Source: Candidatus Saccharimonadales bacterium
GTDB lineage: Bacteria > Patescibacteriota > Saccharimonadia > Saccharimonadales > UBA4665
Assembly (NCBI GenBank): GCA_035479715.1
Contig: DATIIK010000003.1
Span: 3,155 to 27,154 of the forward strand
DNA: 24,000 nucleotides
Direction: 5' to 3'
Shown here: one piece after another, positions 1 to 24,000 of the stretch
How the letters are laid out: the number at the start of each line of letters is the position of its first letter
Position numbering within the stretch: the stretch's first letter is position 1
Program-made: the position numbers and the translations under genes
The notes under the pieces: generated by a model
What the model was told of the DNA's origin: nothing
Database searches by the model: none
What the model saw: the letters and a program-made list of their open reading frames with translations, nothing else

Positions 1-328
1 TCTGCGTAGGCATGGCAACACTGCTCAGGTACGTCTTGCAGGCCGTAATGACATCGGCTGCACTGGCTTCAGCGTCCAGGCCCAGCGCGGTGCGAATGCG
101 CGCTTCATCTTCCTGCAGTCGTATCTGGAGTGTATGGTACAGCTCCGGCCCGGTCGTATCCTGCGGGTCCAGGCCTAGTTCGCGGATCTTGGCGCGGGTT
201 TCGTTGATGATCTGCATCATCAGGCGGATGTCGGCCCCCGGCAACCCGGCCGCCTGTTCCAGACGCTGCAATTGCGTCCGCATGGTCGGCTCAGCCGTGC
301 CCATCAGTTGTGCCAGTACCCTCGACAT
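1..328 (-). CDS. hypothetical protein, N-terminal part (gene continues past the left edge)
   Basis: Absent from the ORF track because it has no stop in the window. The reverse complement from ATG at 328-326 stays open to the edge: MSRVLAQLMGTAEPTMRTQLQRLEQAAGLPGADIRLMMQIINETRAKIRELGLDPQDTTGPELYHTLQIRLQEDEARIR... This composition is balanced, whereas the listed + ORF 12..356 is Ser/Arg/Cys-rich and looks antisense. TGTGATAAT (extended -10-like) lies at 341-349 on the minus strand, 12 nt before the ATG. No family recognised. Confidence 0.5.
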   Translation of the reverse strand, partial: MSRVLAQLMGTAEPTMRTQLQRLEQAAGLPGADIRLMMQIINETRAKIRELGLDPQDTTGPELYHTLQIRLQEDEARIRTALGLDAEASAADVITACKTYLSSVAMPTQ

Positions 329-393
329 GATTACTTATAGATTATCACAAGCGTGATGCCAGGGGATAGTGAAATCATGCCGGATTGCCTGAC

Positions 394-446: not shown

Positions 447-459
447 AGTTGCAAGAGAG
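447..459. repeat. left copy of a 13-bp perfect inverted repeat (AGTTGCAAGAGAG) bracketing the high-GC island
   Basis: AGTTGCAAGAGAG at 447-459 is the exact reverse complement of CTCTCTTGCAACT at 1069-1081. Both copies sit at the composition change. Confidence 0.7.
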
Positions 460-488
460 GACAAAAGGCGATGAGGTGAGGCACGGGC

Positions 489-524
489 GGCCAGCGGTGC
501 AGTCCGAAGACTACGACGCTGGCC
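489..524 (-). terminator. stable stem-loop in the 3' UTR of the island ORF (terminator-like, no adjacent U-tract)
   Basis: Minus-strand RNA reads GGCCAGCG-UCGU-AGUC-UUCG-GACU-GCAC-CGCUGGCC. That is an 8-bp outer stem, an internal loop, and a 4-bp inner stem closed by a C(UUCG)G tetraloop. It lies about 70 nt after the stop at 596. A CCUUUUGU run follows about 25 nt later. Confidence 0.4.
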
Positions 525-595
525 GACCCGGCTCACTCATGGCCAATCAGCCCCTACCCCGCTGTGCGAGTGAGTACTGCCGACGGCGTAGCCAG

Positions 596-1003
596 CTACA
601 GGGAGACCGAGGGGCGCTCGACCATCTGAGCGAGGGCGTCGTGGTGGTACTCGAAGGCCCACTTGATCGCGTCCACGAGGTCACGGAGAGTAGTCGACTC
701 GACGGAGCCGAGGTCGTACTCACAGCGCTCGAGCGCCCGGGTGAACAGGGCGAAGGAACCGGAGGAAGCCGCGTGGTTGACCACGGAGGCCACGTAGGCG
801 AGCGCCTCGGCCCGGCTGTAGCCGTGTGCACCGGCGTTGTACCGGGCGATGTCCTTGATAACGAACAGCGCCTCGACACCGTAGCCGTTGAACCTGGGGA
901 ACAGGTCCTTGACCATCGGGTCGTCGGTGTTGAGGCCGAGCCGGGTGACGACGTCCTGGAGAATCTCCAAGTTCGTGACGGGCATGAGGATGGGACCGGG
1001 CAT
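596..1003 (-). CDS. hypothetical 135-aa protein encoded on a high-GC (actinobacterial-style) island
   Basis: Three long ORFs overlap here. This frame has about 90% G/C at third positions (13 of 136 codons end in A/T by hand count) and a balanced globular-looking composition. It also has a strong AGGAG Shine-Dalgarno (1010-1014, minus) 6 nt before the ATG at 1003. No Cys-rich, TM or recognisable catalytic motif, and no family recognised. Confidence 0.7.
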   Translation of the reverse strand: MPGPILMPVTNLEILQDVVTRLGLNTDDPMVKDLFPRFNGYGVEALFVIKDIARYNAGAHGYSRAEALAYVASVVNHAASSGSFALFTRALERCEYDLGSVESTTLRDLVDAIKWAFEYHHDALAQMVERPSVSL

Positions 1004-1068
1004 GATGTGCTCCTGTCGGGATCTAGAACCACTGCGGTAGCGGTCCTGTGTGGTGGGGGGTCGTCTAA

Positions 1069-1081
1069 CTCTCTTGCAACT
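1069..1081. repeat. right copy of the 13-bp inverted repeat (CTCTCTTGCAACT)
   Basis: Exact reverse complement of 447-459. In mRNA sense (minus strand) it lies in the 5' UTR of the island ORF, and the partner lies in the 3' UTR. Confidence 0.7.
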
Positions 1082-1130
1082 TCAAAATACACTCATGTTA
1101 GTGCGCATAGGCTGTATGCTAACTGAGCAA

Positions 1131-2561: not shown

Positions 2562-3476
2562 CTAGACCACTGCCCTACCAGCCGAATTAAAGTCTTCCAG
2601 CTTGCCCTCGACTACTTTTTGTACGGCTGGTATGACATGCTTGTTGATAAGCTTGGACACCGAGTATTCATCGGGGTTCTCACGCAGGCACTCTTCCAGT
2701 GTAGTACGGTAAGCCACGCGCATGTCGCTATTGATGTTGATCTTGGTAACACCAATTTTTACCGCGCTGACAAAATAATGTCCTGGCGTGCCGCTGCCGC
2801 CGTGCAGACTGATATTGCAGGGCAGTACATCGCGGATACGCTGGAGCAGTTCCAGGTCGAGCTTCTTTGGCACCGGATATTTGCCGTGCAGGTTACCGAC
2901 AGCTGCCGCAAAGGTGTCTATGCCAGTCCGCACATAGAAATCGAGGGCGCTTTCCGGCGTACTAAATGTTTTTTTGATCTCTTCGTAATCAATCTTTTCC
3001 TTGTGTAGGTTGCTACTGCCGCCAAAGTAATGCGGCTCACTCTCTACCAGCGCACCGGTAAACTTGGCATACTCCACAATCTCTTTCGTGGCATCAATAA
3101 TCTCTGCTTCGGTAGCATCCTTTTTAGCCTGAGAAAAGTCGATGTGGATGAACTCAAATCCGGCATCGATGCCCTTTTTGGCATCCTCGACGGATGGTGA
3201 ATGGTCCAGGTTGACGTACATTTCCACCCCGTATTCGTATTTGAAGTTATCAACCATATCGCGCACGTTCTGAATGCCGATATCGCTGACCTCACCGGCG
3301 CTAACCTCTACCAGTACCGGCGCATTCTTGGCCTTGGCAGCGAGGGCGACAGCCTTGAGGGTCGGCTCGTCATCGAGATTGAAAGCGCCGAATGCCCAGT
3401 GCTCGGTACGGGCCTGCTCCATGCGGGCACGTGCTTTAGCACAGTTGGCACGGACTTGTTGTAGTGTAATTGGCAT
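2562..3476 (-). CDS. fba: class II fructose-bisphosphate (ketose-bisphosphate) aldolase
   Basis: 304 aa with NLDHS metal/active-site and SLHGGSG motifs typical of class II FBA/tagatose-bisphosphate aldolases. Confidence 0.9.
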   Translation of the reverse strand: MPITLQQVRANCAKARARMEQARTEHWAFGAFNLDDEPTLKAVALAAKAKNAPVLVEVSAGEVSDIGIQNVRDMVDNFKYEYGVEMYVNLDHSPSVEDAKKGIDAGFEFIHIDFSQAKKDATEAEIIDATKEIVEYAKFTGALVESEPHYFGGSSNLHKEKIDYEEIKKTFSTPESALDFYVRTGIDTFAAAVGNLHGKYPVPKKLDLELLQRIRDVLPCNISLHGGSGTPGHYFVSAVKIGVTKININSDMRVAYRTTLEECLRENPDEYSVSKLINKHVIPAVQKVVEGKLEDFNSAGRAVV

Positions 3477-3500: not shown

Positions 3501-4478
3501 CTAGCGTTTCTTTTCCAGCACATGATGGGCAGCAAGCCTGATATGTTTGGCATCGAGCCCGAAATGTTCTAACAGTTCGTTCGGCTCACCGCTTTCGCCG
3601 AACCGGTCGCGCATACCGATGCGCAGCATCGGCGCGGGATGTTCTTCGGCCAGCAGCTCTGCGATAGCCCCAGCCAGGCCGCCGGCAATCTGGGCTTCCT
3701 CGGCAGTGACCACGCAGCCGGTCTTACGCACGCTTTTCAGGATGGTCTCGGTATCGAGTGGCTTGATGGTTGGCACATGAATGACTTCGGCATCAACACC
3801 GTCTTTGTACAATTGCTCGGCTGCAACCATAGCCTGATAGGTCATGGTACCTGTAGTAATGATAGTCACGTCGGTACCCGGCATGAACACATACGCCTTG
3901 CCTATTTCGAACGGTGTCTTGTCGGTGGTGATGATAGGCGTCGCTTCGCGGGCCAGACGCAGGTAGTTCGGTCGTCCGTCTCGGGCCATCGCCAGCGTCG
4001 CCTTTTCGGCCTCCACGCTGTCGCCCGGTGCGATCACGACCATGTTCGGCAGCACTCGCATGAGTGCAATGTCTTCAAGCATCTGGTGCGTCGCGCCGTC
4101 AGGGCCTACCGAGATACCTGCATGGCTACCGACGATTTTGACCGGCCGGTCGTTCAGGCAGATGGTAGTACGGATCTGCTCCCAGTTGCGCCCCGGACTG
4201 AATGCCGCGTAGCTGCTGACGAAGGGAATCTTGCCTAAAGCGGCCAAGCCCGCACCGACGGTTACCAGATTCTGTTCGGCCACGCCGATCTCTACGAACC
4301 GATCCGGGAATGCGTCACGGAACAAGCCCATCTGCGTCGAATCGGTCAGGTCTGCGCAGGCAGCTACTACGTTTATATCAATCTCACCAGCTTTCTTAAG
4401 TCCACGTCCAAAGCCTTTGCGGATTGGCTCTCCCGGCAAATCTTTGGCAGTTATATCTACCAGATGTAAATCACTCAT
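3501..4478 (-). CDS. tkt: transketolase, C-terminal (pyrimidine-binding) subunit
   Basis: The track ORF runs to 4574, but MSDLHLVDITAKDLPGEPIRKGFG starts at ATG 4478. That start overlaps the upstream subunit stop (4471-4473) by 8 nt, consistent with translational coupling. The sequence matches the split-transketolase C-terminal half (EIGVAEQNLV, GATHQ). Confidence 0.9.
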   Translation of the reverse strand: MSDLHLVDITAKDLPGEPIRKGFGRGLKKAGEIDINVVAACADLTDSTQMGLFRDAFPDRFVEIGVAEQNLVTVGAGLAALGKIPFVSSYAAFSPGRNWEQIRTTICLNDRPVKIVGSHAGISVGPDGATHQMLEDIALMRVLPNMVVIAPGDSVEAEKATLAMARDGRPNYLRLAREATPIITTDKTPFEIGKAYVFMPGTDVTIITTGTMTYQAMVAAEQLYKDGVDAEVIHVPTIKPLDTETILKSVRKTGCVVTAEEAQIAGGLAGAIAELLAEEHPAPMLRIGMRDRFGESGEPNELLEHFGLDAKHIRLAAHHVLEKKR

Positions 4479-5325
4479 GTTCGCTCCTAATTTTGCCGCC
4501 CAGGGTGCGTAGCTCGTGCAAGGCCTTGACCGCCTGTTCGTGATTTGGCGGTGCACCGTGCCAGTGGAAGTCACCTTCCATAAAATCTACGCCCTTACCT
4601 GGGATAGTGTAGGCAATGATGCAGACCGGTTTTTCGGTGACGGCCTTGGCCATGGCGCAAGCGTCGATGACAGCTTCGATGTCGTTGCCATCGATCTCGA
4701 GCACATGCCAGCCGAAACTTTCCCATTTCTTTTTGAGGTCTTCCAAGGGCATGACACTTTCGGTCGGACCATCAATCTGAATGTTGTTACGGTCGACTAT
4801 GGCAGTGATGGTGTTGAGCCGGTACTTGCCGGCCAGCATGATGCCTTCCCAGACATTGCCCTCGTCCAGCTCACCGTCACCGGTCACCACGTACACGCGG
4901 CGGCTCAGCTGCTTGTCCATGCGTAAGCCCAAGGCGATACCGCAGGCTTGGCTGATACCACAGCCCAGCGGGCCGCTGGTTGTTTCCATGCCTGGGAGAC
5001 GCGTACGCTCCGGATGACCCTGCAGGCGTGAACCCAGACGCCGGAGCGTCATCAGCTCCTTTTTGGGGAAATACCCGGCCTCCGCCATGGCCGCATACCG
5101 TACTGGTACGCAGTGCCCATTGCTAAGCAGTAAGATGTCCCGCTCGTTCCAGTCAGGATTCTTTGGGTCGTGTTTGAGTACATCAAAATACAGCGCCGTA
5201 AAGACATCGGCCAGCCCGAGTGGTCCAGCGCTGTGCCCGCTGCCGGCATGTTCCAGCATGCGGATGATGTCTTCGCGGATGGTATTGGCTTTTTGCTCGA
5301 GTTGTTTCAGTGAATGTGATGCCAT
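4471..5325 (-). CDS. tkt: transketolase, N-terminal (thiamine-diphosphate-binding) subunit
   Basis: 284 aa with GSGHSAGPLG and the TPP-binding GDGELDEGNVWE motif. Adjacent to the C-terminal half. Confidence 0.9.
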   Translation of the reverse strand: MASHSLKQLEQKANTIREDIIRMLEHAGSGHSAGPLGLADVFTALYFDVLKHDPKNPDWNERDILLLSNGHCVPVRYAAMAEAGYFPKKELMTLRRLGSRLQGHPERTRLPGMETTSGPLGCGISQACGIALGLRMDKQLSRRVYVVTGDGELDEGNVWEGIMLAGKYRLNTITAIVDRNNIQIDGPTESVMPLEDLKKKWESFGWHVLEIDGNDIEAVIDACAMAKAVTEKPVCIIAYTIPGKGVDFMEGDFHWHGAPPNHEQAVKALHELRTLGGKIRSEHE

Positions 5326-5342: not shown

Positions 5343-5978
5343 CTATCCCTCTACTATTGCTTTTAGTTTAGCATAAGCGGCAGCCGAATCTTTTGCACCG
5401 TGCAGATAGCCGCCCGCATTCAGCACATCAATACCTCCGAGTGAAAGCAGCCGGGCGTTCTGGTCGTTGACACCCCCGTCCCAACCGAGTTCCAGCCGGG
5501 GCTTGAGGTCACGCAAACGCTGCGCCTTACCAAGTAGGCTCATATCGGCATGACCGCCGAAATGGCCCAGGTTCCCCGAAAATATCAGTACATGGTCAAT
5601 GACATCAAGCGCCGGAGCAATGGCATCTACCGGCGTCTCGGGCAGTAACGCTACACCTACTTCTATGCCGTGGCTGTGCGCCTGCCCGGCGAATTCCATA
5701 AAATCACCCTCGGCTTCGGCGTGCACAATGATAAGCTGCGGCCTGAGTGCGATCAGCGCCGGCAAATGGTCAAACGGGCTTTGGTACATCACATGTAGAT
5801 CCGCCCGTACGCCACCGGGCCACCAGACATCTTCTATTTCCGTCAGCCGATTACGCGTAAATATGCCATCCGACAGATCGATATGCAGGCGATGCGCATA
5901 GCCGAGCGTCTCGTTGATCTGCTTTTCGTAGACCGCTGGCTCATCCGTCGTAACGGTGGGGCAGATTTCTGCGCTCAT
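5343..5978 (-). CDS. rpe: ribulose-phosphate 3-epimerase family protein (divergent)
   Basis: Trimmed to ATG 5978, which forms an ATGA overlap with the upstream membrane-protein stop. HIDLSDGIF resembles the Rpe H-x-D-x-M-D-G-x-F motif, and the length is TIM-barrel-like. The pentose-phosphate neighbours fit. It is divergent, so specificity is uncertain. Confidence 0.65.
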   Translation of the reverse strand: MSAEICPTVTTDEPAVYEKQINETLGYAHRLHIDLSDGIFTRNRLTEIEDVWWPGGVRADLHVMYQSPFDHLPALIALRPQLIIVHAEAEGDFMEFAGQAHSHGIEVGVALLPETPVDAIAPALDVIDHVLIFSGNLGHFGGHADMSLLGKAQRLRDLKPRLELGWDGGVNDQNARLLSLGGIDVLNAGGYLHGAKDSAAAYAKLKAIVEG

Positions 5979-6466
5979 GTGCGCTTCCCCCGCCTGGCGA
6001 TAACCCCTAATGCGATAGTATAGAGAACAACCAGGACCATCATCTCGGTCCACGGTACGCCGAAGGCAGCCCACCAGCTGGTACCGCTACCCGATTGCCA
6101 GTGGAACGTCGTCATGAGTATGCTCGTGACGGTCTGCACGATGCTGAATGCTGCTACGCCCATGGCCGCGATGAATACCGCCCAGAAGAGCCGTGGCAGC
6201 CATCCGAGCACCCGGCCCAGCCCGAAGACCCAGGCAATGATTACCAGCAGCAGCGGATAGCCCCACGTCGATACCTGGAAAGCCCATGTGCCCGCACTCA
6301 TGTAATGGATAAACCGTGCGTACACCCAGAGCAGCTGCGCCACGACCATTACCTGTGCCAACAGCATGATGACCACGAATGCAGCCTGCCATGGGCGGGT
6401 AATAGTTACCAGAACCGGCGTTCCTTTGGCCTGTTTCGCTTGCTTTGTCCGCTTTGCTGCAGCCAT
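5975..6466 (-). CDS. hypothetical integral membrane protein (about 4 TM helices)
   Basis: 163 aa with a Lys-rich N-terminus followed by long hydrophobic, Trp-rich segments. It is packed between rpiB (2-nt gap) and the rpe-like gene (ATGA overlap). Confidence 0.6.
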   Translation of the reverse strand: MAAAKRTKQAKQAKGTPVLVTITRPWQAAFVVIMLLAQVMVVAQLLWVYARFIHYMSAGTWAFQVSTWGYPLLLVIIAWVFGLGRVLGWLPRLFWAVFIAAMGVAAFSIVQTVTSILMTTFHWQSGSGTSWWAAFGVPWTEMMVLVVLYTIALGVIARRGKRT

Positions 6467-7046: not shown

Positions 7047-8063
7047 CTAGCCCTTGTGCAGGAATTTGGCGGCATCGGCCACGACTTCTACGAGACGGTT
7101 GCTGTAACCCCATTCGTTGTCGTACCACACCATCACTTTGACCAAGTTGCCAGCGACGACCTTGGTTAGCAGCAGGTCGACGGTACCGGAGTGGCTGTTA
7201 CCGATGTAGTCAGAACTCACCAGCGGCTCTTCAGATACACCGAGGATACCCTGGTAGAATGGCTCTTTGGCGGCTTTCTTGAAGGCCTCGTTGATTTCCT
7301 CAACCGAGGTATTGCGCTTGAGCAGTGCGGTGACATCGCTCAGTGATACCACCGGGGTGGGAACGCGGATGCTCAGGCCGTCGAACTTACCCTTCAGCTG
7401 AGGCAGCGTAAGGGTCACGGCGATAGCGGCACCGGTGGTCGTTGGGACGATATTCTCAGCGGCATTGCGGCCCTCGCGCAGGTCTTTCTTGGGAGCATCC
7501 TGCAAAGCTTGGCTGGCAGTGTAGCTGTGGACGGTGGTCAGCATGGACTTCTCAACGCCGAATTCACTTTCCAGGATAGCCATAACTGCCCCCAAAGAGT
7601 TAGTAGTACAGCTGGCGTTACTAATGACTTCGGTAGCGCCCTCCAATTTGTCGTCATTGGCACCAAGCACGATGGTGTCAACACCTTCGCTCTTGGTCGG
7701 GCCGCTGATAACGACGCGTTTAGCGCCCGCAGTGATGTGCTTGCTGGCACCGTCTTTGTCGGTAAAGAAGCCCGTGCTCTCAACGACCACATCGATATCC
7801 AGGTCTTTCCAGGGCAGCTCAAGAGGATCTTTTACTGCCAGGACCTTTACTTTGTGACCATCGACGATGATGTTTTCGTCGTCATGGCCGACCTCGTGGT
7901 CGTAGGTGCCATAGTTACTGTCGTGCTTCAGCAAGTATGCCAGCGTTTTGGTATCCGTTAGGTCGTTGATGGCGACGATTTCGAGGTCGTCCCGTGCAAA
8001 TGCGATCTTGAAGGCATTGCGGCCAATGCGGCCAAAGCCATTGATAGCGATGCGTGATTTCAT
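7047..8063 (-). CDS. gap: glyceraldehyde-3-phosphate dehydrogenase
   Basis: 338 aa with INGFGRIGR NAD-binding and SNASCTTNS active-site motifs, and WYDNEWGYS near the C-terminus. Confidence 0.95.
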   Translation of the reverse strand: MKSRIAINGFGRIGRNAFKIAFARDDLEIVAINDLTDTKTLAYLLKHDSNYGTYDHEVGHDDENIIVDGHKVKVLAVKDPLELPWKDLDIDVVVESTGFFTDKDGASKHITAGAKRVVISGPTKSEGVDTIVLGANDDKLEGATEVISNASCTTNSLGAVMAILESEFGVEKSMLTTVHSYTASQALQDAPKKDLREGRNAAENIVPTTTGAAIAVTLTLPQLKGKFDGLSIRVPTPVVSLSDVTALLKRNTSVEEINEAFKKAAKEPFYQGILGVSEEPLVSSDYIGNSHSGTVDLLLTKVVAGNLVKVMVWYDNEWGYSNRLVEVVADAAKFLHKG

Positions 8064-8104
8064 ATTCTCACCCTTGTATCAGATTAATAATGCTTACGGC
8101 TTTA

Positions 8105-8134
8105 ATTGTAGCGCACAGCTGACCCTTGATGCAA
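8105..8134 (-). promoter_or_regulatory. candidate sigma70-type promoter of gap (TTGCAT-18 nt-TACAAT)
   Basis: The minus strand reads TTGCAT (8134-8129), an 18-nt spacer, then TACAAT (8110-8105), about 40 nt upstream of the gap ATG. Sequence-only prediction. Confidence 0.45.
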
Positions 8135-8136
8135 AA

Positions 8137-8166
8137 TTGACCTTTTAAGCATTTTATTGTAAAAAT
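8137..8166 (+). promoter_or_regulatory. candidate divergent promoter of the orphan cassette (TTGACC-18 nt-TGtAAAAAT)
   Basis: TTGACC at 8137-8142 lies back-to-back with the gap -35. An extended -10-like TGTAAAAAT lies at 8158-8166. The -10 is a weak match, so confidence is low. Confidence 0.3.
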
Positions 8167-8205
8167 AATAGAGTCATCTTATGACAACCGAGAGAGGGCA
8201 CCGCT

Positions 8206-8607
8206 ATGAGTGGGGCACAGCAGTCAACAGTTCACACTGCCGAGATTCAAATCTTGGCAATGGAACCAACCGACAGCATCCTCGACCGCCTGGCACGACG
8301 AATATATCTGAGGCAGGTCGACCCCGTACTGCTAGGCCTTGTCGGCACTTCGCGCATCAACATCCGCATCGCCGTCAAATCCGACAGCATGGTGTATGCC
8401 ACTGAAGTCATGGACCACTGCGACGTTCGGGGCCTGCGCATCACGCGGCTCTATCTGAAGATACTGGATTTCTTCCCGGGTGCCTACATCATCGTGGACA
8501 TCGACGAGCAGAACTTCAAACAGCCCGTGCAGCGCTACACCAAGTGCGCCAGCGGTGACCCCGACGAGATCCGTGCGCTCCTGCTTCCGCAGCAGTCTGT
8601 GCAGTAA
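8206..8607 (+). CDS. hypothetical protein A of the orphan cassette (133 aa)
   Basis: Purine-rich SD GAGAGAGGG (8190-8198) lies 7 nt before the ATG at 8206. The overlapping ORFs 8181..8405 (+) and 8332..8727 (-) are Arg/Pro/His-rich and look non-coding. GC3 is about 74% by hand count. An internal Met (MEPTD) is an alternative start. No family recognised. Confidence 0.55.
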   Translation: MSGAQQSTVHTAEIQILAMEPTDSILDRLARRIYLRQVDPVLLGLVGTSRINIRIAVKSDSMVYATEVMDHCDVRGLRITRLYLKILDFFPGAYIIVDIDEQNFKQPVQRYTKCASGDPDEIRALLLPQQSVQ

Positions 8608-8642
8608 AGCCCCCGTAAAGACTACGACCGAAAGGTACAGAG

Positions 8643-9083
8643 ATGGACCCGAAAACCGTACTCTACACGATTCCGCGTACCGGCCACTGCAAGCACAACG
8701 ATCTGCAGACCCTGCTGGAAGCGGCACACGAGCGCAGCGCCTTCGGCTTCGGCGGAAGTCCGCCCCTGGACAGGCTCTACCTCAGCCACGATGACGGTCG
8801 CGGAACCTCTTGGGAGCTGTGCTACCTGGCCACCACGCTGACGCAAGCCGTTGCGCTGTTCCAGTGCACCGGCACTGATCATGACGGCAAGCCCGCTATG
8901 TTCTACGTCGGCGCGATCAAGACGAGCAGCACAACTGATTGGCACCTCACCCAACGGACGGTTATCGGTACCCCCATGCCGGAGTGCGACTACGAAGAGC
9001 TGCCGCTGCTCCCGCAGCTGCATAATCTGCAGTGGCACGGACAGGTGCTCGACCAGCTGGCCGCGAACGCTATCAGCGCCTGA
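8643..9083 (+). CDS. hypothetical protein B of the orphan cassette (146 aa)
   Basis: AAAGG lies 8 nt upstream of the ATG, 35 nt after gene A. The composition is balanced, and GC3 is about 80% by hand count. The antisense ORF 8622..9206 is Arg-rich junk-like. No family recognised. Confidence 0.6.
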   Translation: MDPKTVLYTIPRTGHCKHNDLQTLLEAAHERSAFGFGGSPPLDRLYLSHDDGRGTSWELCYLATTLTQAVALFQCTGTDHDGKPAMFYVGAIKTSSTTDWHLTQRTVIGTPMPECDYEELPLLPQLHNLQWHGQVLDQLAANAISA

Positions 9084-9181
9084 CCACTCTCTCGGTACTA
9101 TCAGTCGACAGAGGTCGTGGGAATGCTTTCGAGTGTCCGTTTCTGGACGCCTCCTTAAGTACATTCTCCCCTCTCTCGACC

Positions 9182-9248
9182 GCACGTTTACGAGTAGGGT
9201 CCTCATATCCAGAATCGTACTGATGAGTCCTAGCAGGACGAAACGTGT
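9182..9248 (+). ncRNA. type III hammerhead self-cleaving ribozyme motif (predicted cleavage after U9188)
   Basis: Read directly: stem III is 9182-9187 GCACGU paired with 9243-9248 ACGUGU. The cleavage triplet is GUU (H17 = U9188). Stem I is 9189-9193 UACGA paired with 9215-9219 UCGUA, with a 21-nt loop. The core CUGAUGA is at 9220-9226. Stem II is GUCCU (9227-9231) / AGGAC (9235-9239) with loop AGC, including the conserved G10.1-C11.1 pair. GAAA follows at 9240-9243. All invariant core positions are present. Confidence 0.85.
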
Positions 9249-9258
9249 TTAAGACAGC

Positions 9259-9289
9259 AAAACACCCCGAGTAAACGGGGTGTTTTATT
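9259..9289. terminator. bidirectional rho-independent terminator (cassette on +, ppa on -)
   Basis: 11-bp stem AAAACACCCCG / CGGGGTGTTTT with a 6-nt loop. A U-run follows on the + strand (UUUUAUU), and the A-run gives a U-run on the minus strand. It lies 16 nt after the ppa stop and 10 nt after the hammerhead. Confidence 0.7.
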
Positions 9290-9304
9290 CTGACAACGGT
9301 TAGC

Positions 9305-9844
9305 TCAAGCTTGCTTCTGGTTGTTCCAGCGCTCAATCGACTCTTTGACGATCGCTTTGGCGGCCTCGATGTCACCCCAGCCTTGCACTACTGTAGTGCC
9401 CGGCTTCTTGAGGTCTTTGTAGTGTGAGAAGTGCTCTGCCATCTTCTGCTTCCAACGCTCACCCATATCATCAAGCGTCTTAATGCTGTCGCCGGTGTTG
9501 CGGTCATCTGCCGGCACTACTACGATCTTGTAGTCTGCCTCGCCGTCATCCACGAAGTTCAGCATACCGATGATGCGGGCCTCAAGCCAGACGCCGGTCG
9601 GAATCGGCGCGTCGCACACAACCAGCGTGTCCAGTTCGTCACCGTCTTCATCAAGTGTCTGCGGAATAAAGCCGTAGTTGACGGGCTTTGCGTAGATACT
9701 CGGCTCGACGCGGTCGATCATGAAGGCGGCACGCCCGCGGTCCCATTCGATCTTCAAAAAGCTGCCCTGGGGAATCTCTACGACCGTGTTCACGGTACCG
9801 TTCTGGTAATCACCAGGTGTCAGGACTTGGTTAAAATCTGCCAC
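9305..9844 (-). CDS. ppa: inorganic pyrophosphatase (family I)
   Basis: VVEIPQGSFLKIEWD and DEDGDELDTLV motifs. The track start (ATG 9916) would overlap the divergent GDPD gene. I prefer GTG at 9844 because a perfect AAGGAG lies 9 nt upstream and the N-terminus then has the usual length. The start choice is an inference. Confidence 0.85.
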   Translation of the reverse strand: MADFNQVLTPGDYQNGTVNTVVEIPQGSFLKIEWDRGRAAFMIDRVEPSIYAKPVNYGFIPQTLDEDGDELDTLVVCDAPIPTGVWLEARIIGMLNFVDDGEADYKIVVVPADDRNTGDSIKTLDDMGERWKQKMAEHFSHYKDLKKPGTTVVQGWGDIEAAKAIVKESIERWNNQKQA

Positions 9845-16660: not shown

Positions 16661-19177
16661 TTATATTCGCTCTGCCGCACAGGCACCGTGCGCTGCGTTC
16701 GCGACGCTGTCGAGAATCTTGGTGACCTCTGCATCGGTCAAGGTCCGCTGGTAGTGAGTAACATCCAGACGGTAGGTGACATTCTTGTAATCAGCTCCCG
16801 CTTCCTGGTAGATATCCAGTACCGAGGTTTTGACCGCATACTGCTCGGCAGAGAGGGCGGCAACCATACTCCTGACAACCGTGTCCAGCTCGCCAACCGG
16901 CGTATCAGCAGCGATCTTAAGGGTAATATCTTGGCTTACCTTCGGGAAACGTGACAAAGGTGTATACGTGGCAGTATCCGGCCGCATTGCCGACAGAAAA
17001 AGTTCAAAGCCAGCACAAAAATCAGGCAGTTTGAGCGCTTTCATGACGCTGCGCTTATAGTCGCCGATGATGCCGAGCGGACGCTCGCCGCTGTAGAGCA
17101 TGGCCGCACGCTGCAGGTCGAATGGCGCTGCCATCTGCATCAGCATCCGATGCCCCTGCAGGTCAGCCTTGGCTAGTGGTACGATTGTAACCGCGGGCAG
17201 ATCGATCAGGAGCCCCGCAAAACGCTGTGCCTGGTAATACGGCGCACCACCATATTCGCGGGCCGCCGTCTTTGGTTCGGCGGCAAATACGAATGATATA
17301 CGGCCGAATTCGCGCGGCAGCCCATCGTCTTCGGTTTCTGACACGCCATGTGCCTTACCGATCTCAAACAGGGCGAAACGATCGTACCCCGCCTTTATAT
17401 TCATATGAACCTTATCGAGCAGGCTAGGTGTCAGGCTAACGCGGTAATATTGCAAGTCCGGGCTCAGGGCATTGCTCACCTGAAACGCCTCTTCGACTTG
17501 CTGGCCGGCCTTTTTCAGCAGGTCGCCATGCACGAAGCTATATGCCAGCACTTCGTTGGCACCAGCCCGGGCCAACCGGGCACGGATCATCGCCTTCAAC
17601 TCCAGTTTTTCGTCTTTCTGCACTGGCATGATACTACGCTTGGGCAGTTCCAGCGGCAGCTTATCAAAGCCATAAAGGCGGCCGATCTCCTCCACTACAT
17701 CCTCACGTGTTTCGATGTCGGTTCGCCAGAAAGGCGCCGTAACAGTCAGCTGGTCGCCCTCGACCTGAACGCTGCACTCGACATTTTCAAGCAGCTGCCG
17801 CATGTCATCCGCACTCAATGCAAAACCCAACCGTTCATTGATAAACCCGACCGATACCGGTACCGGCGGATGCACCCAGACCCTGCCCTCTACCTGGCTG
17901 ATATCGATAGCGTCGCCTGCTACGGTACCACCGGCCAGCGTGCGTGTTTCGTGCACTGCCTTGGCCAGGACATACGGATTCTGCAGTGGTGACTGGCCCT
18001 TGTTAAAGCGTGTCACCGCATCGGTAAAGAGTCCGTGCGCCATACTGGTGCGGCGGATAGAATACATATCGAAGGTCGCTACCTCGATAATAATGCGTGT
18101 TGTTTCGTCGCTGACCTCCGTAGAGGCACCGCCCATGACCCCACCGACACCGATCAGATGGTCACCGCTGGCAATCATGATAGCTTCCGAACGCGGAGCG
18201 ATTTCTTTGCCACTCAAAAGCGTAATCTTCTCGTCGCTGCGTGGGTAGCGAACCGTGATTTCGGCCCCTGCACCGCTGGTAAGCGCCGCAACCTTGTCGT
18301 AATCATACGCATGGAGCGGCTGGCCGGTCAGGCACATCAGGTAATTGGTCATATCGACGATATTGTTGATGGGGCGTAAACCTAGGCGCACCAGGTGGAT
18401 TTGCAACCACAGCGGGCTTGGACCGACCGTGACATTGCTCATAGGGATAGCCATGAAACGCGGCACCAGTTCAGGCAGTTCATTCGTAACCGTCAGTGGC
18501 AGCGCCTCGGCCTCGATAGCCAGGCTGTACTTTTCGGTGCCATACCAATCCGGACCGACGAATTTCTGCTGCTGTATGCCCGCCAGTTCGCGGTATACGC
18601 CGAGCAGGCCGAAACAGTCCGGGCGATGGGTGAACATTTTGTTTTCGATATCAATGATGTAGTCGTGCAGGTTATAGGCATCGGCGAACGAGGTACCGGG
18701 CGCAATTTCTTCATCAATTTCCAGGATACCCTCGTGGCTATCACCTAGTCCCAGCTCACGCGGGCTGGCCAGCATGCCGTTACTTTTAACACCGCGCAGC
18801 TCGCGCGTACCGAGCACGAACGGATCCTTGCCGTAGCTCTCGGGCACCGTCGTTCCCGGAGGCAGCCAGACAGCGCGCAGGCCGGCACGGACATTGGGCG
18901 CGCCACACACTACCTGCACCAGACCTTCGGCGTCGCGTTCGACACCCTCGACCTTACCGCCGTCGTCGATCTTGCAGACATGCATATGGTCGGAATCTGG
19001 GTGGGACTCACATGCGTTCACGTGCACAACCAGCGCGCCCGCGAACGGGGCGCCAAAATCAATTACTTCCTCGACAGCACCGAGCTGTGCGCCGATGGCC
19101 TCGGCCAAGCCGTCCACATCGTCCTGCAACAGATCTAGGTTCGTATAGAATTTTGCGAGAGAAAGGGGGGCTTTCAT
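16661..19177 (-). CDS. pheT: phenylalanine--tRNA ligase beta subunit
   Basis: 838 aa with an N-terminal tRNA-binding (OB) domain (VVCGAPNVRAG, SNGMLAS), B3/4 and B5 regions and a C-terminal anticodon-binding-like domain. The ATG overlaps the upstream gene stop (ATGA at 19174-19177). Confidence 0.95.
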   Translation of the reverse strand: MKAPLSLAKFYTNLDLLQDDVDGLAEAIGAQLGAVEEVIDFGAPFAGALVVHVNACESHPDSDHMHVCKIDDGGKVEGVERDAEGLVQVVCGAPNVRAGLRAVWLPPGTTVPESYGKDPFVLGTRELRGVKSNGMLASPRELGLGDSHEGILEIDEEIAPGTSFADAYNLHDYIIDIENKMFTHRPDCFGLLGVYRELAGIQQQKFVGPDWYGTEKYSLAIEAEALPLTVTNELPELVPRFMAIPMSNVTVGPSPLWLQIHLVRLGLRPINNIVDMTNYLMCLTGQPLHAYDYDKVAALTSGAGAEITVRYPRSDEKITLLSGKEIAPRSEAIMIASGDHLIGVGGVMGGASTEVSDETTRIIIEVATFDMYSIRRTSMAHGLFTDAVTRFNKGQSPLQNPYVLAKAVHETRTLAGGTVAGDAIDISQVEGRVWVHPPVPVSVGFINERLGFALSADDMRQLLENVECSVQVEGDQLTVTAPFWRTDIETREDVVEEIGRLYGFDKLPLELPKRSIMPVQKDEKLELKAMIRARLARAGANEVLAYSFVHGDLLKKAGQQVEEAFQVSNALSPDLQYYRVSLTPSLLDKVHMNIKAGYDRFALFEIGKAHGVSETEDDGLPREFGRISFVFAAEPKTAAREYGGAPYYQAQRFAGLLIDLPAVTIVPLAKADLQGHRMLMQMAAPFDLQRAAMLYSGERPLGIIGDYKRSVMKALKLPDFCAGFELFLSAMRPDTATYTPLSRFPKVSQDITLKIAADTPVGELDTVVRSMVAALSAEQYAVKTSVLDIYQEAGADYKNVTYRLDVTHYQRTLTDAEVTKILDSVANAAHGACAAERI

Positions 19178-19500
19178 GTGGTTGCTCCTGCGATACGGTC
19201 GGCAATGTGGGCCATCGTGTCCTTAAATTCCTTTTCCAGGTCCAGCCCATAGTAGTTAGCGATGACCAGTATGGACCACAGGCAGTCGGCCAGCTCATGC
19301 GCGAGCTTGGCGTCTACATCGGCTATATCACGCAGGTTTTCTTTGGCCATGATGAGTTTCTGCAGGTCACCAAAGTCACCCGCGAATCCCATCGCATAGT
19401 CACGCACGCCCCAGGTAGTCTTACCCTGCTTGGTGTTCAGTTCTTGATACTGCAGGCGGATAACTTCAGCCTGCTCCATCAGATCCTTCAGGTCGCTCAT
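19174..19500 (-). CDS. MazG-like all-alpha nucleotide pyrophosphohydrolase domain protein
   Basis: 108 aa, helical, with paired acidic helix motifs (DFGDLQKLIM..., LAHELADCLWSILVIANYYGLDLE) like small MazG/YpjD-type proteins. GAGGA SD lies 7 nt upstream. It is translationally coupled to pheT. Confidence 0.7.
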   Translation of the reverse strand: MSDLKDLMEQAEVIRLQYQELNTKQGKTTWGVRDYAMGFAGDFGDLQKLIMAKENLRDIADVDAKLAHELADCLWSILVIANYYGLDLEKEFKDTMAHIADRIAGATT

Positions 19501-22251: not shown

Positions 22252-22746
22252 ATGGCAAACTTTAGTTTTGATATAGAATCCGACTACGACAAAGCGGAAA
22301 TGAACAACGTATTCGACCAGACCCAGCGCGAAATCGAAAGCCGCTACGATTTCAAGGGTACGCCGGCCGCCCTCGAATGGCTGGATGATAAAAAGGGTGT
22401 AAAGATAACCGGCAGTGGCGAATGGCAAATTGATGCCATATTGGATATTATCCGCAAAAAACTGGCCACTCGTGGACAGAGTCAAAAGACACTTGACACC
22501 ACAAAAGATATAACCGAAAGCAACCTGAAGAGTACGAAAGAAGTACCTTTCAAACAGGGGCTCGACCAGGATAAGGCCAAGCAGCTCACCAAGCTTATCC
22601 GTGAACAGTACCCCAAGGTAAAGACACAGATCCAGGGCGAAGCCGTCCGCGTTATGAGCGGCAGCAAGGACGACCTGCAGGCAGTCATGCAGCTGCTGCG
22701 CGGCCAGGATCTGGATTTTCCGTTGAACTTTACGAACTATCGGTAG
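22252..22746 (+). CDS. yajQ: YajQ-family nucleotide-binding protein (UPF0234)
   Basis: 164 aa with MANFSFDIESDYDKAEMNNVFDQTQREIESRYDFKG, a near-canonical YajQ N-terminus. Typical length. Confidence 0.9.
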   Translation: MANFSFDIESDYDKAEMNNVFDQTQREIESRYDFKGTPAALEWLDDKKGVKITGSGEWQIDAILDIIRKKLATRGQSQKTLDTTKDITESNLKSTKEVPFKQGLDQDKAKQLTKLIREQYPKVKTQIQGEAVRVMSGSKDDLQAVMQLLRGQDLDFPLNFTNYR

Positions 22747-22801
22747 CGCCCGGCTCAAGTCCTTCGGTTTTAGCAGCCATATTCGCTATACTAGAACAAG
22801 C

Positions 22802-24000
22802 ATGAGCGAAAACACCGAACAACCGACGCCGAGCCTTCTCGAGCAAGCCACCGCCGTACTCGCGAATAATGATCGCAACACGTACACGGTACCCGCTGAA
22901 GGACTGTATCCGCACCAATGGCTCTGGGACAGTTGCTTCGTTGCGATCGGCCTGCGCTGGATCGACATCGACCGCGCCCAGGCCGAGCTCACCAGCCTGC
23001 TCCGGGGCCAGTGGAGCAACGGCATGATGCCCAATATGATATTCAGCAACGATCCACATTACCGCCGTGACCGGGCCGTCTGGCGCAGCTGGATCAGCCC
23101 CTACTCGCCCGACAAGGTCGCCACCAGCGGCATAACACAGCCACCCATGCTTGCCGAAGCCGTCTGGCAGATTGGTGAGCGTTTGAACGCTGCAGAGCGG
23201 CGCACATGGTATAAACAGATGCTGCCCAGCTTGGTCGCGTACCACCAATGGCAATACACCGACCGCGATCCGCACCAGGAGGGCCTGGTGCTTCAGGTGC
23301 ATCCATGGGAAACCGGCCTGGACAATACGCCGCCCTGGATGAGCGAGCTGCACGAACATCTGATGCCCTGGTGGGTACGCAGTATCCGTGCCACGCACAG
23401 TGAGTGGCTTATCAACCTGTTCCGCCGCGATCTGCACTATGTGCCGCCGGGCCAGCGCTTTTCCACGCTGGAGGTGCTCAGCCTGTTCGACGCCCAGCAC
23501 CGCTTGCGCCGCAAAGCGTACGAAACCGACAAGATCCTGCAGCATGGCCTGTTCGCCATCGAAGACCTGACCTACAATTGCATATTCATCCGCGCCAATA
23601 GCCGTTTGCAACAGATAGCCAAGGCCACCAGCCATGCCCTGCCACCCGACCTGCTGGCCAACATGAAAAAATCCGAAGCCGCCCTGGAAGATCTGTGGGA
23701 CGAATATGCTCATGCATATTGGTCGCGTGATTTCATTACCCACCGCCTGATAAAACAGCCAAGCATCGCTACGCTGATGCCCCTGTATGCTGGCTGTATC
23801 AGCAAAGAACGCGCCGAAGTACTCGTACGCCAGCTGGAAGACGACAAAAAGTTCGGCACCGCCTTTGCCGTCCCGAGCGTACCAGTGGACGGCCCGATGT
23901 TCGATCCGGACCGCTACTGGCAGGGACCTACCTGGCTTAATACTAACTGGCTCATATGCGAAGGCCTCAAAAACTACGGCTACGACGACCACGCTGCAGC
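22802..24000 (+). CDS. (alpha/alpha)6-barrel glycoside hydrolase, GH63/MGH1-like (partial, continues past the right edge)
   Basis: Absent from the track (no stop in the window). The ATG at 22802 opens a frame to the edge: MSENTEQPTPSLLEQATAVLANNDRNTYTVPAEGLYPHQWLWDSCF...HPWETGLDNTPPW...YWQGPTWLNTNWLI. These motifs are typical of glucosyl/mannosylglycerate-hydrolase-like GH63 enzymes. The listed 420-aa minus ORF 22730..23992 is its antisense shadow. Confidence 0.8.
   Translation, partial: MSENTEQPTPSLLEQATAVLANNDRNTYTVPAEGLYPHQWLWDSCFVAIGLRWIDIDRAQAELTSLLRGQWSNGMMPNMIFSNDPHYRRDRAVWRSWISPYSPDKVATSGITQPPMLAEAVWQIGERLNAAERRTWYKQMLPSLVAYHQWQYTDRDPHQEGLVLQVHPWETGLDNTPPWMSELHEHLMPWWVRSIRATHSEWLINLFRRDLHYVPPGQRFSTLEVLSLFDAQHRLRRKAYETDKILQHGLFAIEDLTYNCIFIRANSRLQQIAKATSHALPPDLLANMKKSEAALEDLWDEYAHAYWSRDFITHRLIKQPSIATLMPLYAGCISKERAEVLVRQLEDDKKFGTAFAVPSVPVDGPMFDPDRYWQGPTWLNTNWLICEGLKNYGYDDHAA

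Follow-up and report, generated by a model that had tools for sequence, protein, structure and literature searches.

The 24,000-nucleotide (nt) stretch of Saccharimonadales DNA analysed here (contig DATIIK010000003.1), referred to below as the window, carries a small two-gene cassette between the divergent GAPDH gene and the convergent inorganic pyrophosphatase gene (ppa). The two open reading frames (ORFs) of the cassette, ORF1 and ORF2, are followed by a 3' untranslated region (UTR) in which a structured domain, a sequence with the complete layout of a type III hammerhead ribozyme and an intrinsic terminator lie one after the other. Stems I, II and III of the hammerhead motif have 5, 5 and 6 base pairs (bp), respectively, with zero mismatches, and its parts are arranged as follows.

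9182-9248, + strand: type III hammerhead ribozyme, assigned from sequence, descriptor, covariance model, minimum free energy (MFE) fold and conservation
9182-9187, + strand: stem III, 5' strand GCACGU; U16.1 is position 9187
9188, + strand: cleavage-site base U17 (triplet GUU; predicted scissile bond U9188/U9189)
9189-9193 and 9215-9219, + strand: stem I, UACGA / UCGUA, enclosing 21 nt
9197-9200 and 9207-9210, + strand: distal part of stem I, helix plus internal loop (predicted fold)
9220-9226, + strand: core CUGAUGA (sequence, descriptor)
9227-9231 and 9235-9239, + strand: stem II, GUCCU / AGGAC, with loop AGC (sequence)
9240-9242, + strand: core GAA (sequence)
9243-9248, + strand: stem III, 3' strand ACGUGU; A9243 (A15.1) pairs with U9187

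The topology is that of a type III hammerhead, with stem III open and stems I and II closed by loops; the strand order and the alignment to a covariance model (R1, below) agree on this point. All bases of the invariant core (C3 U4 G5 A6 N7 G8 A9 G12 A13 A14) are present, and the pairs adjacent to the core are intact (1.1-2.1, U9189-A9219; 10.1-11.1, G9227-C9239; 15.1-16.1, A-U). The motif was compared with the acceptance criteria for hammerhead matches as set out in the methods of Perreault et al. 2011 (PMC3088659). Every sequence feature named there was found at 9182-9248, including A15.1, U16.1 and H17, and no core-adjacent position was mispaired. The A15.1-U16.1 pair and a non-G base at H17 are present alike in the window and in the homologous locus described below.

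The frequency with which such a motif would arise by chance was estimated with our own descriptor, which specifies CUGANGA, the stem II hairpin, GAAA, U16.1, H17, the stem I hairpin and an open stem III. A scan of both strands of the window gave 9182-9248 as the single match, and 400 Markov-shuffled versions of the window gave none. Random sequence of the same composition (first-order Markov, 60 Mb) contained three matches with stems of at least 3/3/3 bp and none with stems of at least 4/4/4 or 5/5/5 bp. The chance expectation is thus at most about 0.002 per 24-kb window at the loosest descriptor setting and far lower at the observed 5/5/6. The initial annotation of this DNA had described a complete type III hammerhead that was very unlikely by chance, co-oriented with ORF1 and ORF2 and located 10 nt before a terminator stem. 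The parse was reproduced base for base and is further upheld by the score of model R1 and by purifying selection in the homologous locus; the estimate above and the map of the locus bear out the other two statements.

Model R1 was built from five type III hammerheads of other loci (L044, L075, L010, L012 and L103; alignment A5). With filters off, R1 recovered the motif (window positions 9183-9247; 46.8 bits, E ~3e-11), aligned each of its three stems and placed the insertion in the stem I loop. The contribution of stem II, the core and the stem III 3' strand to this score is partly circular, since the search pattern that yielded three of the five training sequences derived from the window itself (stem II and stem III 3' half). 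Independent of that retrieval are stem I, H17 and the stem III 5' strand. The next-best match to R1 in the window reached 10.8 bits.

Further evidence came from the sole homologous locus, a 2,147-nt soil-type metagenome contig of the Joint Genome Institute (L005), which contains the start of gapdh, a homologue of ORF1, an ORF2 and ppa in that order, and shares the order of the UTR, ribozyme and terminator with the window, so that synteny is identical. Its ribozyme, at 1429-1511, reads GCACGU-U / UACGA-(36 nt)-UCGUA / CUGACGA / GUCCU-ACUU-AGGAC / GAA / ACGUGC. The two ppa genes encode proteins that are 97% identical and differ at 74 of 180 third codon positions (41%). Against this background, the two ribozymes agree at 41 of the 42 positions under structural or catalytic constraint (P ~7e-9 if neutral identity is taken as 0.59). 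From the window to L005, N7 changes from U to C, the outermost stem III pair from G-U to G-C and loop II from AGC to ACUU, and distal stem I is replaced by one of other length and sequence. In both loci a proximal stem I of 5 bp is followed by an asymmetric internal loop (GUA/AGAA in the window, AUA/CCAG in L005) and then by a distal helix, which has 4 bp and a 6-nt loop in the window and 12 bp and a tetraloop in L005 (z -4.7). U17 is kept in both. Judged from these sequences, the pattern of variation is that expected under selection for catalysis. The element at 9182-9248 is very probably a real hammerhead maintained by selection, and it is likely, with somewhat less assurance, to be active in vivo.

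When the window and L005, with distal stem I trimmed, were aligned with five other type III hammerheads, 98 of 98 cells could pair and 8 of the 14 pairs showed a compensatory change. This count is descriptive and partly circular, since the sequences had been picked as hammerheads.

The remaining features of the locus lie on either side of the ribozyme.

7047-8063, - strand: GAPDH, divergent neighbour (Pfam PF00044, PF02800)
8137-8166, + strand: putative promoter, TTGACC, 18 nt and TG-extended AAAAAT (consensus scan; block near-identical in L005)
8206-8607, + strand: ORF1, 133 amino acids (aa), orphan, with host-like codon usage and GC content at third codon positions (GC3)
8643-9083, + strand: ORF2, 146 aa, orphan, hypervariable, with host-like codon usage
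9104-9180, + strand: conserved structured 3' UTR domain, 77 nt (RNAalifold consensus of window and L005)
9259-9289, both strands: bidirectional intrinsic terminator, common to the convergent ppa (sequence; conserved in L005)
9305-9844, - strand: inorganic pyrophosphatase, ppa, convergent neighbour (Pfam PF00719)

The structured domain stops 1 nt before stem III of the hammerhead. Its outer helix (GUCGACAGAGG/CCUCUCUCGAC) shows one compensatory A-U to G-C change relative to L005, its inner helix (GGGAAUG/CAUUCUC) shows G-C/G-U swaps, and an apical hairpin sits on top. The 80 nt upstream of the ribozyme fold at -31 kcal/mol, with an MFE z-score of -3.9 in both the window and L005, and the region 8970-9300 as a whole is 58-78% identical between the two. 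The MFE structure of the nascent RNA 9084-9248 consists of this domain and the hammerhead; for 9084-9295 the fold in which the hammerhead is enforced lies within 0.2 kcal/mol of the MFE. A regulatory alternative fold, in which 9086-9094 pairs with stem I in the MFE structure of the window, was considered and rejected, as L005 does not preserve this pairing.

The terminator stem (AAAACACCCCG, 9259-9269, with CGGGGUGUUUU, 9276-9286) starts 10 nt past the ribozyme and is conserved in L005 with one compensatory top pair. A consensus terminator scanner run over the window left the 9259-9286 stem unflagged because the T-run lies partly within the stem. Below threshold, several Rfam models aligned their terminator portion to the same sequence.

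The 80 nt that immediately precede each of the eight type III hammerheads inspected are unusually stable in structure, with z-scores of -2.5 to -5.9 against dinucleotide shuffles. These were the hammerheads of the window, L005, L044 and L075 (Saccharimonadales) and of L010, L012, L019 and L103; by source, four are from Saccharimonadales, three are metagenomic and one belongs to a viral contig. Judged from this small sample, for which shuffles served as the only controls, a stable upstream hairpin may commonly accompany type III hammerheads of bacteria.

Transcription from a promoter near 8137-8166 would produce one RNA comprising ORF1, ORF2, the structured domain, the hammerhead and the terminator. 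The hammerhead, whose fold is the predicted MFE structure once the ribozyme has been transcribed, would then cleave itself between U9188 and U9189. This would leave an mRNA of ~1 kb whose 3' end, bearing a 2',3'-cyclic phosphate, consists of the 77-nt stem-loop domain followed by CGCACGUU, and would release a fragment of ~100 nt with a 5'-OH, composed of the ribozyme body and the terminator. The motif, its statistical significance, the way it is conserved, the conserved structure beside it and its genomic context are observed; that it is catalytic, that the promoter works as one and what cleavage means for the mRNA are inferred. Taken as a whole, the account of a selected type III hammerhead in the 3' UTR of a two-gene orphan operon, acting in cis in 3'-end processing, is given a probability of about 0.7. 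A narrower proposal for its role, that processing supplies a hairpin-capped mRNA 3' end that is independent of, or insulated from, the common terminator and the convergent ppa, is tentative and falls somewhat short of an even chance. It is doubtful that the hammerhead and upstream stem-loop form a composite 3'-end module that bounds fast-evolving orphan cassettes at a variable hot spot next to ppa in Saccharimonadales, the upstream stabiliser hairpin then being a hitherto unremarked functional companion of bacterial type III hammerheads.

Several observations weigh against the account of a selected, cis-acting ribozyme. No match was obtained when the whole window was searched with Rfam 15 at gathering thresholds, and in a permissive scan of 9100-9330 the type III model RF00008 (Hammerhead_3), whose gathering score is 48.5, reached 21.2 bits. 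The significant Rfam covariance score that the initial annotation had named as a check was therefore formally not obtained, and it is the type III model R1, with the partial circularity described above, that provides the covariance score. The RF00008 alignment covers 9212-9249 only, with stem I deleted and part of its 3' strand used as stem III, and the low score is accounted for by the 21-nt insertion in stem I and not by a defective core. Compact canonical type III hammerheads from other loci scored 50.1, 45.8, 41.0 and 37.3 bits with RF00008, so the gathering threshold, which is a curation threshold and no biochemical criterion, is tight even for textbook cases. At gathering, the model misses members with long stem I insertions, and such hammerheads are probably under-counted.

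A further limitation is that there is one true homologue, in which the core helices are invariant. In the stems, for which a check of homologous loci for compensatory changes had been proposed, a single G-U to G-C replacement in stem III was seen, and the evidence within the family is one of conservation, not covariation. The GUU triplet is rare in natural hammerheads and is slower than GUC in minimal constructs. Furthermore, loop II and the stem I loops show no Watson-Crick complementarity of 3 nt or more in either homologue, so that the tertiary contact required for fast cleavage is hypothetical; an internal loop 5 bp from the core is conserved in stem I of both the window and L005. Finally, the protective role proposed for the upstream hairpin draws on only eight loci, of which seven are independent.

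The possibility was considered that the motif is a chance match or part of a coding sequence, such as the ORFs at 8851-9252 (+) or 9073-9375 (-), both of which are present in the six-frame list; the lack of a gathering-level Rfam match could be taken in the same sense. This is very improbable, given the chance expectation, the near-complete conservation of the constrained positions in L005, and the 1-nt indels in loop II and the UTR relative to L005, which would break any frame. An intact motif of weak or no catalytic activity, kept within a larger 3' UTR RNA such as a protein-binding or stability element, would fit the GUU site, the want of a Watson-Crick loop-loop contact, the spread of conservation over ~8970-9300, beyond the ribozyme alone, and the few synonymous changes in the conserved tail of ORF2. 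In such an element, however, all catalytic bases would not be expected to be conserved while N7, the loops and distal stem I vary freely, which is the signature of selection on catalysis, and we consider this explanation improbable. It is also unlikely that the hammerhead arrived with horizontally acquired, mobile or phage cargo and serves that element, perhaps with no current role in the host. Many bacterial hammerheads are tied to prophages and integrases (PMC3088659; PMC6155905), the cassette genes are orphans, and the ppa-gapdh junction is variable and is empty in one close relative (L027). However, neither phage genes nor an integrase, a transposase or flanking repeats were found in the 24 kb, the cassette resembled none of the phage or plasmid records searched and had no IMG/VR homologue, both ORFs have host-like codon usage and GC3, and a single ribozyme copy does not allow excision of a unit-length or circular RNA.

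The remaining alternative accepts an active hammerhead and gives it the opposite effect, namely that cleavage destabilises the cassette mRNA by removing the terminator hairpin, the slow GUU site setting a tuned or conditional decay. The ribozyme does lie 10 nt upstream of the sole intrinsic terminator, U17 is retained in both homologues, and a eukaryotic precedent exists in the rodent Clec2 hammerhead, listed in PMC6155905. The Clec2 ribozyme likewise resides in a 3' UTR and its cleavage removes the normal mRNA 3' end, but it is eukaryotic and discontinuous and removes the poly(A) signal, whereas the window would keep a conserved hairpin at the new 3' end. Destabilisation is the weaker proposal because the conserved 9104-9180 stem-loop, which looks at least as protective as the terminator, would remain as that end; it is rather unlikely. 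The initial annotation had stated that cleavage would remove a protective 3' hairpin: the terminator would indeed be detached, but the mRNA would not be left without a hairpin. Its suggestion of tuned or conditional cleavage by GUU was speculation, and what can be stated is that U17 is retained in both homologues. There is no sign of a ligand or a switch, the one candidate pairing (9086-9094 with stem I) being confined to the window. Cis-acting 3'-end processing, with the upstream domain left on the mRNA, is thus preferred.

The GC content at all three codon positions and the codon usage of ORF1 and ORF2 match those of host genes; both ORFs are orphans, although they probably represent real genes. 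Non-coding blocks around these fast-evolving genes are conserved in L005, where the segment with the promoter and 5' region (8064-8200) shows 78-94% identity. Protein searches with ORF1 and ORF2 (three word-indexed and one exhaustive with HMMER) returned only self-matches and the ORF1 homologue on L005 (P0003), which has 56% identity and is the single homologue found. The nucleotide identity of ORF1 to L005 is 66%, and the differences at the three codon positions (46/31/60, compared to 5/1/74 for ppa) indicate that ORF1 is fast-evolving and weakly constrained. No homologue of ORF2, and no further one of ORF1, was found in 1.84 billion representatives (exhaustive HMMER) or 5.8 billion clusters (word-indexed). 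The body of ORF2 cannot be aligned with L005; its last 33 aa align at 55% identity (E 3e-10). The 33-aa tail has few synonymous changes, and in the ORF2 counterpart of L005 (720-1332, +) an in-frame TAG at 1215-1217 occurs just before this segment. Pseudogenisation, sequencing error or RNA-level constraint could account for the stop codon and the low synonymous change.

No credible family was identified with Pfam, PADLOC or PHROGs for six cassette proteins; a PADLOC match of the L044 ORF to DpdE (E 5e-4) was distrusted since it covers 80 residues of an 856-residue profile. AlphaFold2 models were uninformative, with predicted local distance difference test (pLDDT) values of 33 for ORF1 and 44 for ORF2. 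Both proteins are encoded with 100% identity on CAZMOC010000004.1, from the metagenome-assembled genome (MAG) GCA_964568015.1, and on two Logan contigs, and the NCBI annotation of both is hypothetical protein of 'Candidatus Saccharimonadales bacterium'. Positions 8189-8198, in the ribosome-binding region of ORF1 (CGAGAGAGGG), are perfectly complementary over 10 nt to 9169-9178 (CCCTCTCTCG), which form the C/U-rich 3' strand of the 3' UTR domain. This pairing is only partly kept in L005 and is probably incidental to purine/pyrimidine composition.

The genes that flank the cassette encode, on one side, a PfkB kinase, class II aldolase, split transketolase, RPE, RpiB and GAPDH, and on the ppa side, ppa itself, a GDPD phosphodiesterase, an oxidoreductase, TrxB, a glutaredoxin, two FKBPs, a NUDIX protein, an ABC transporter and PheST. 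The context of the hammerhead is therefore one of housekeeping genes in a MAG of the Saccharimonadales, members of the candidate phyla radiation (CPR), and not a prophage. Long repeats, like the mobile-element features named above, were absent from the window, and the blastn search of the cassette covered 50,697 phage and 72,556 plasmid records.

A scan based on ppa, with one genome per species, yielded 80 Saccharimonadales loci (L020-L099; ppa at ~4001-4530 in each) totalling 629 kb. The gap between ppa and gapdh, which corresponds to 8064-9304 of the window, ranges from 71 to 3,402 nt and contains differing ORFs, and in the closest relative by gapdh (L027, 93%) the empty junction measures 148 nt; on these grounds the junction is a variable hot spot. 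The cassette of the window was found in none of the 80 loci. Two of them (L044 and L075) have other type III hammerheads, each after an orphan ORF and a strong hairpin, and no more were detected when R1 was run over the 629 kb. The L044 hammerhead (4784-4834, -) has a place and orientation like that in the window, between ppa and gapdh, after a 140-aa orphan ORF and before a 39-codon ORF. In L075 the hammerhead (3139-3189, -) is on the opposite side of ppa and separates a 167-aa orphan ORF from gdpd. Both are compact, with GUC and UUC cleavage sites, respectively. With RF00008, L044 scored 45.8 bits, just below gathering, and L075 was not among the matches listed at E<=1.

A pattern scan of metagenome and viral sequences with the 3' half of the ribozyme returned 18 loci, among which only L006, on the same contig as L005, was homologous; the others were unrelated type I, II or III hammerheads. 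The 5' half gave no match in the viral scan (IMG/VR). Two viral matches to a 17-mer of the UTR domain were discarded, there being no similarity beyond the 17 bases.

Type I and III hammerheads have been known in bacterial intergenic regions since 2010-2011, and hundreds have been described, many near integrases or prophages (PMC3088659; PMC6155905). Bacterial type III hammerheads are represented by RF00008 and were described by de la Pena and Garcia-Robles in 2010, as cited in PMC6155905, and by Perreault et al. 2011 (PMC3088659). What prokaryotic hammerheads do biologically is still presented as unsettled (PMC6155905), and a role in transcript processing, with which the 3'-end processing proposed here is in keeping, has been suggested for those that flank genes (PMC3088659). 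The element at 9182-9248 is a further member of this family and leaves knowledge of the class unchanged. It has the same core, three-way junction, open stem III and closed stems I and II, and is likewise intergenic and co-oriented with small genes of unknown function. Unlike the usual bacterial type III hammerhead, it has an extended stem I (5 bp, asymmetric internal loop and distal helix) that the Rfam model skips, a GUU rather than a GUC triplet, a CPR host with a housekeeping rather than a prophage context, and a single copy that closes an orphan operon immediately ahead of the terminator, in a conserved order of hairpin, ribozyme and terminator.

The clustered hammerheads of prophages (Perreault et al. 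2011, Figure 3; A. tumefaciens ardA, C. scindens, A. caulinodans) are similar in the proposed cutting of a transcript into mRNA units, and the L044 and L075 ribozymes resemble them in lying between two ORFs. In contrast, the window has one ribozyme, no phage context and no gene that follows the ribozyme downstream. Self-cleavage of a bacterial mRNA is also carried out by the glmS ribozyme, where the resulting 5'-OH and 2',3'-cyclic phosphate ends determine the fate of the RNA. The glmS ribozyme has another fold, is metabolite-dependent and belongs to a 5' UTR, whereas the window offers no hint of a ligand.

The literature search found nothing that joins 'hammerhead ribozyme' with 'Saccharibacteria', and 'hammerhead' and 'candidate phyla radiation' co-occurred only in connection with RNA polymerase insertion domains. 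Within the searches made here, the present locus and its relatives extend hammerheads to the Saccharimonadales. Moreover, the simplicity of the locus, with one ribozyme, a small operon, one terminator, a conserved hairpin and no prophage, makes it a clean reporter case for the effect of cleavage on mRNA fate.

Some minor observations were made in passing. No Pfam family was assigned at E<=1e-4 to the ORFs at 5975-6466 (-), 12-356 (+), 449-1126 (+), 19174-19500 (-) and 22730-23992 (-); the ORF at the right end of the window encodes 420 aa, without a Pfam family. On a metagenome contig (L007, ~3650-3770, -) and on an IMG/VR viral contig (L100, ~1350-1470, +), a hammerhead core (CTGAYGA-GTCC-loop-GGAC-GAAAC) begins 2 nt after a tRNA-like sequence that terminates in ...CCA. 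The transketolase of the window is split into two ORFs, at 3501-4574 (-) and 4471-5325 (-), which separate the N-terminal part that binds thiamine pyrophosphate from the pyrimidine-binding and C-terminal part. As listed, the two overlap by ~100 nt, and the start of the downstream ORF is probably later.

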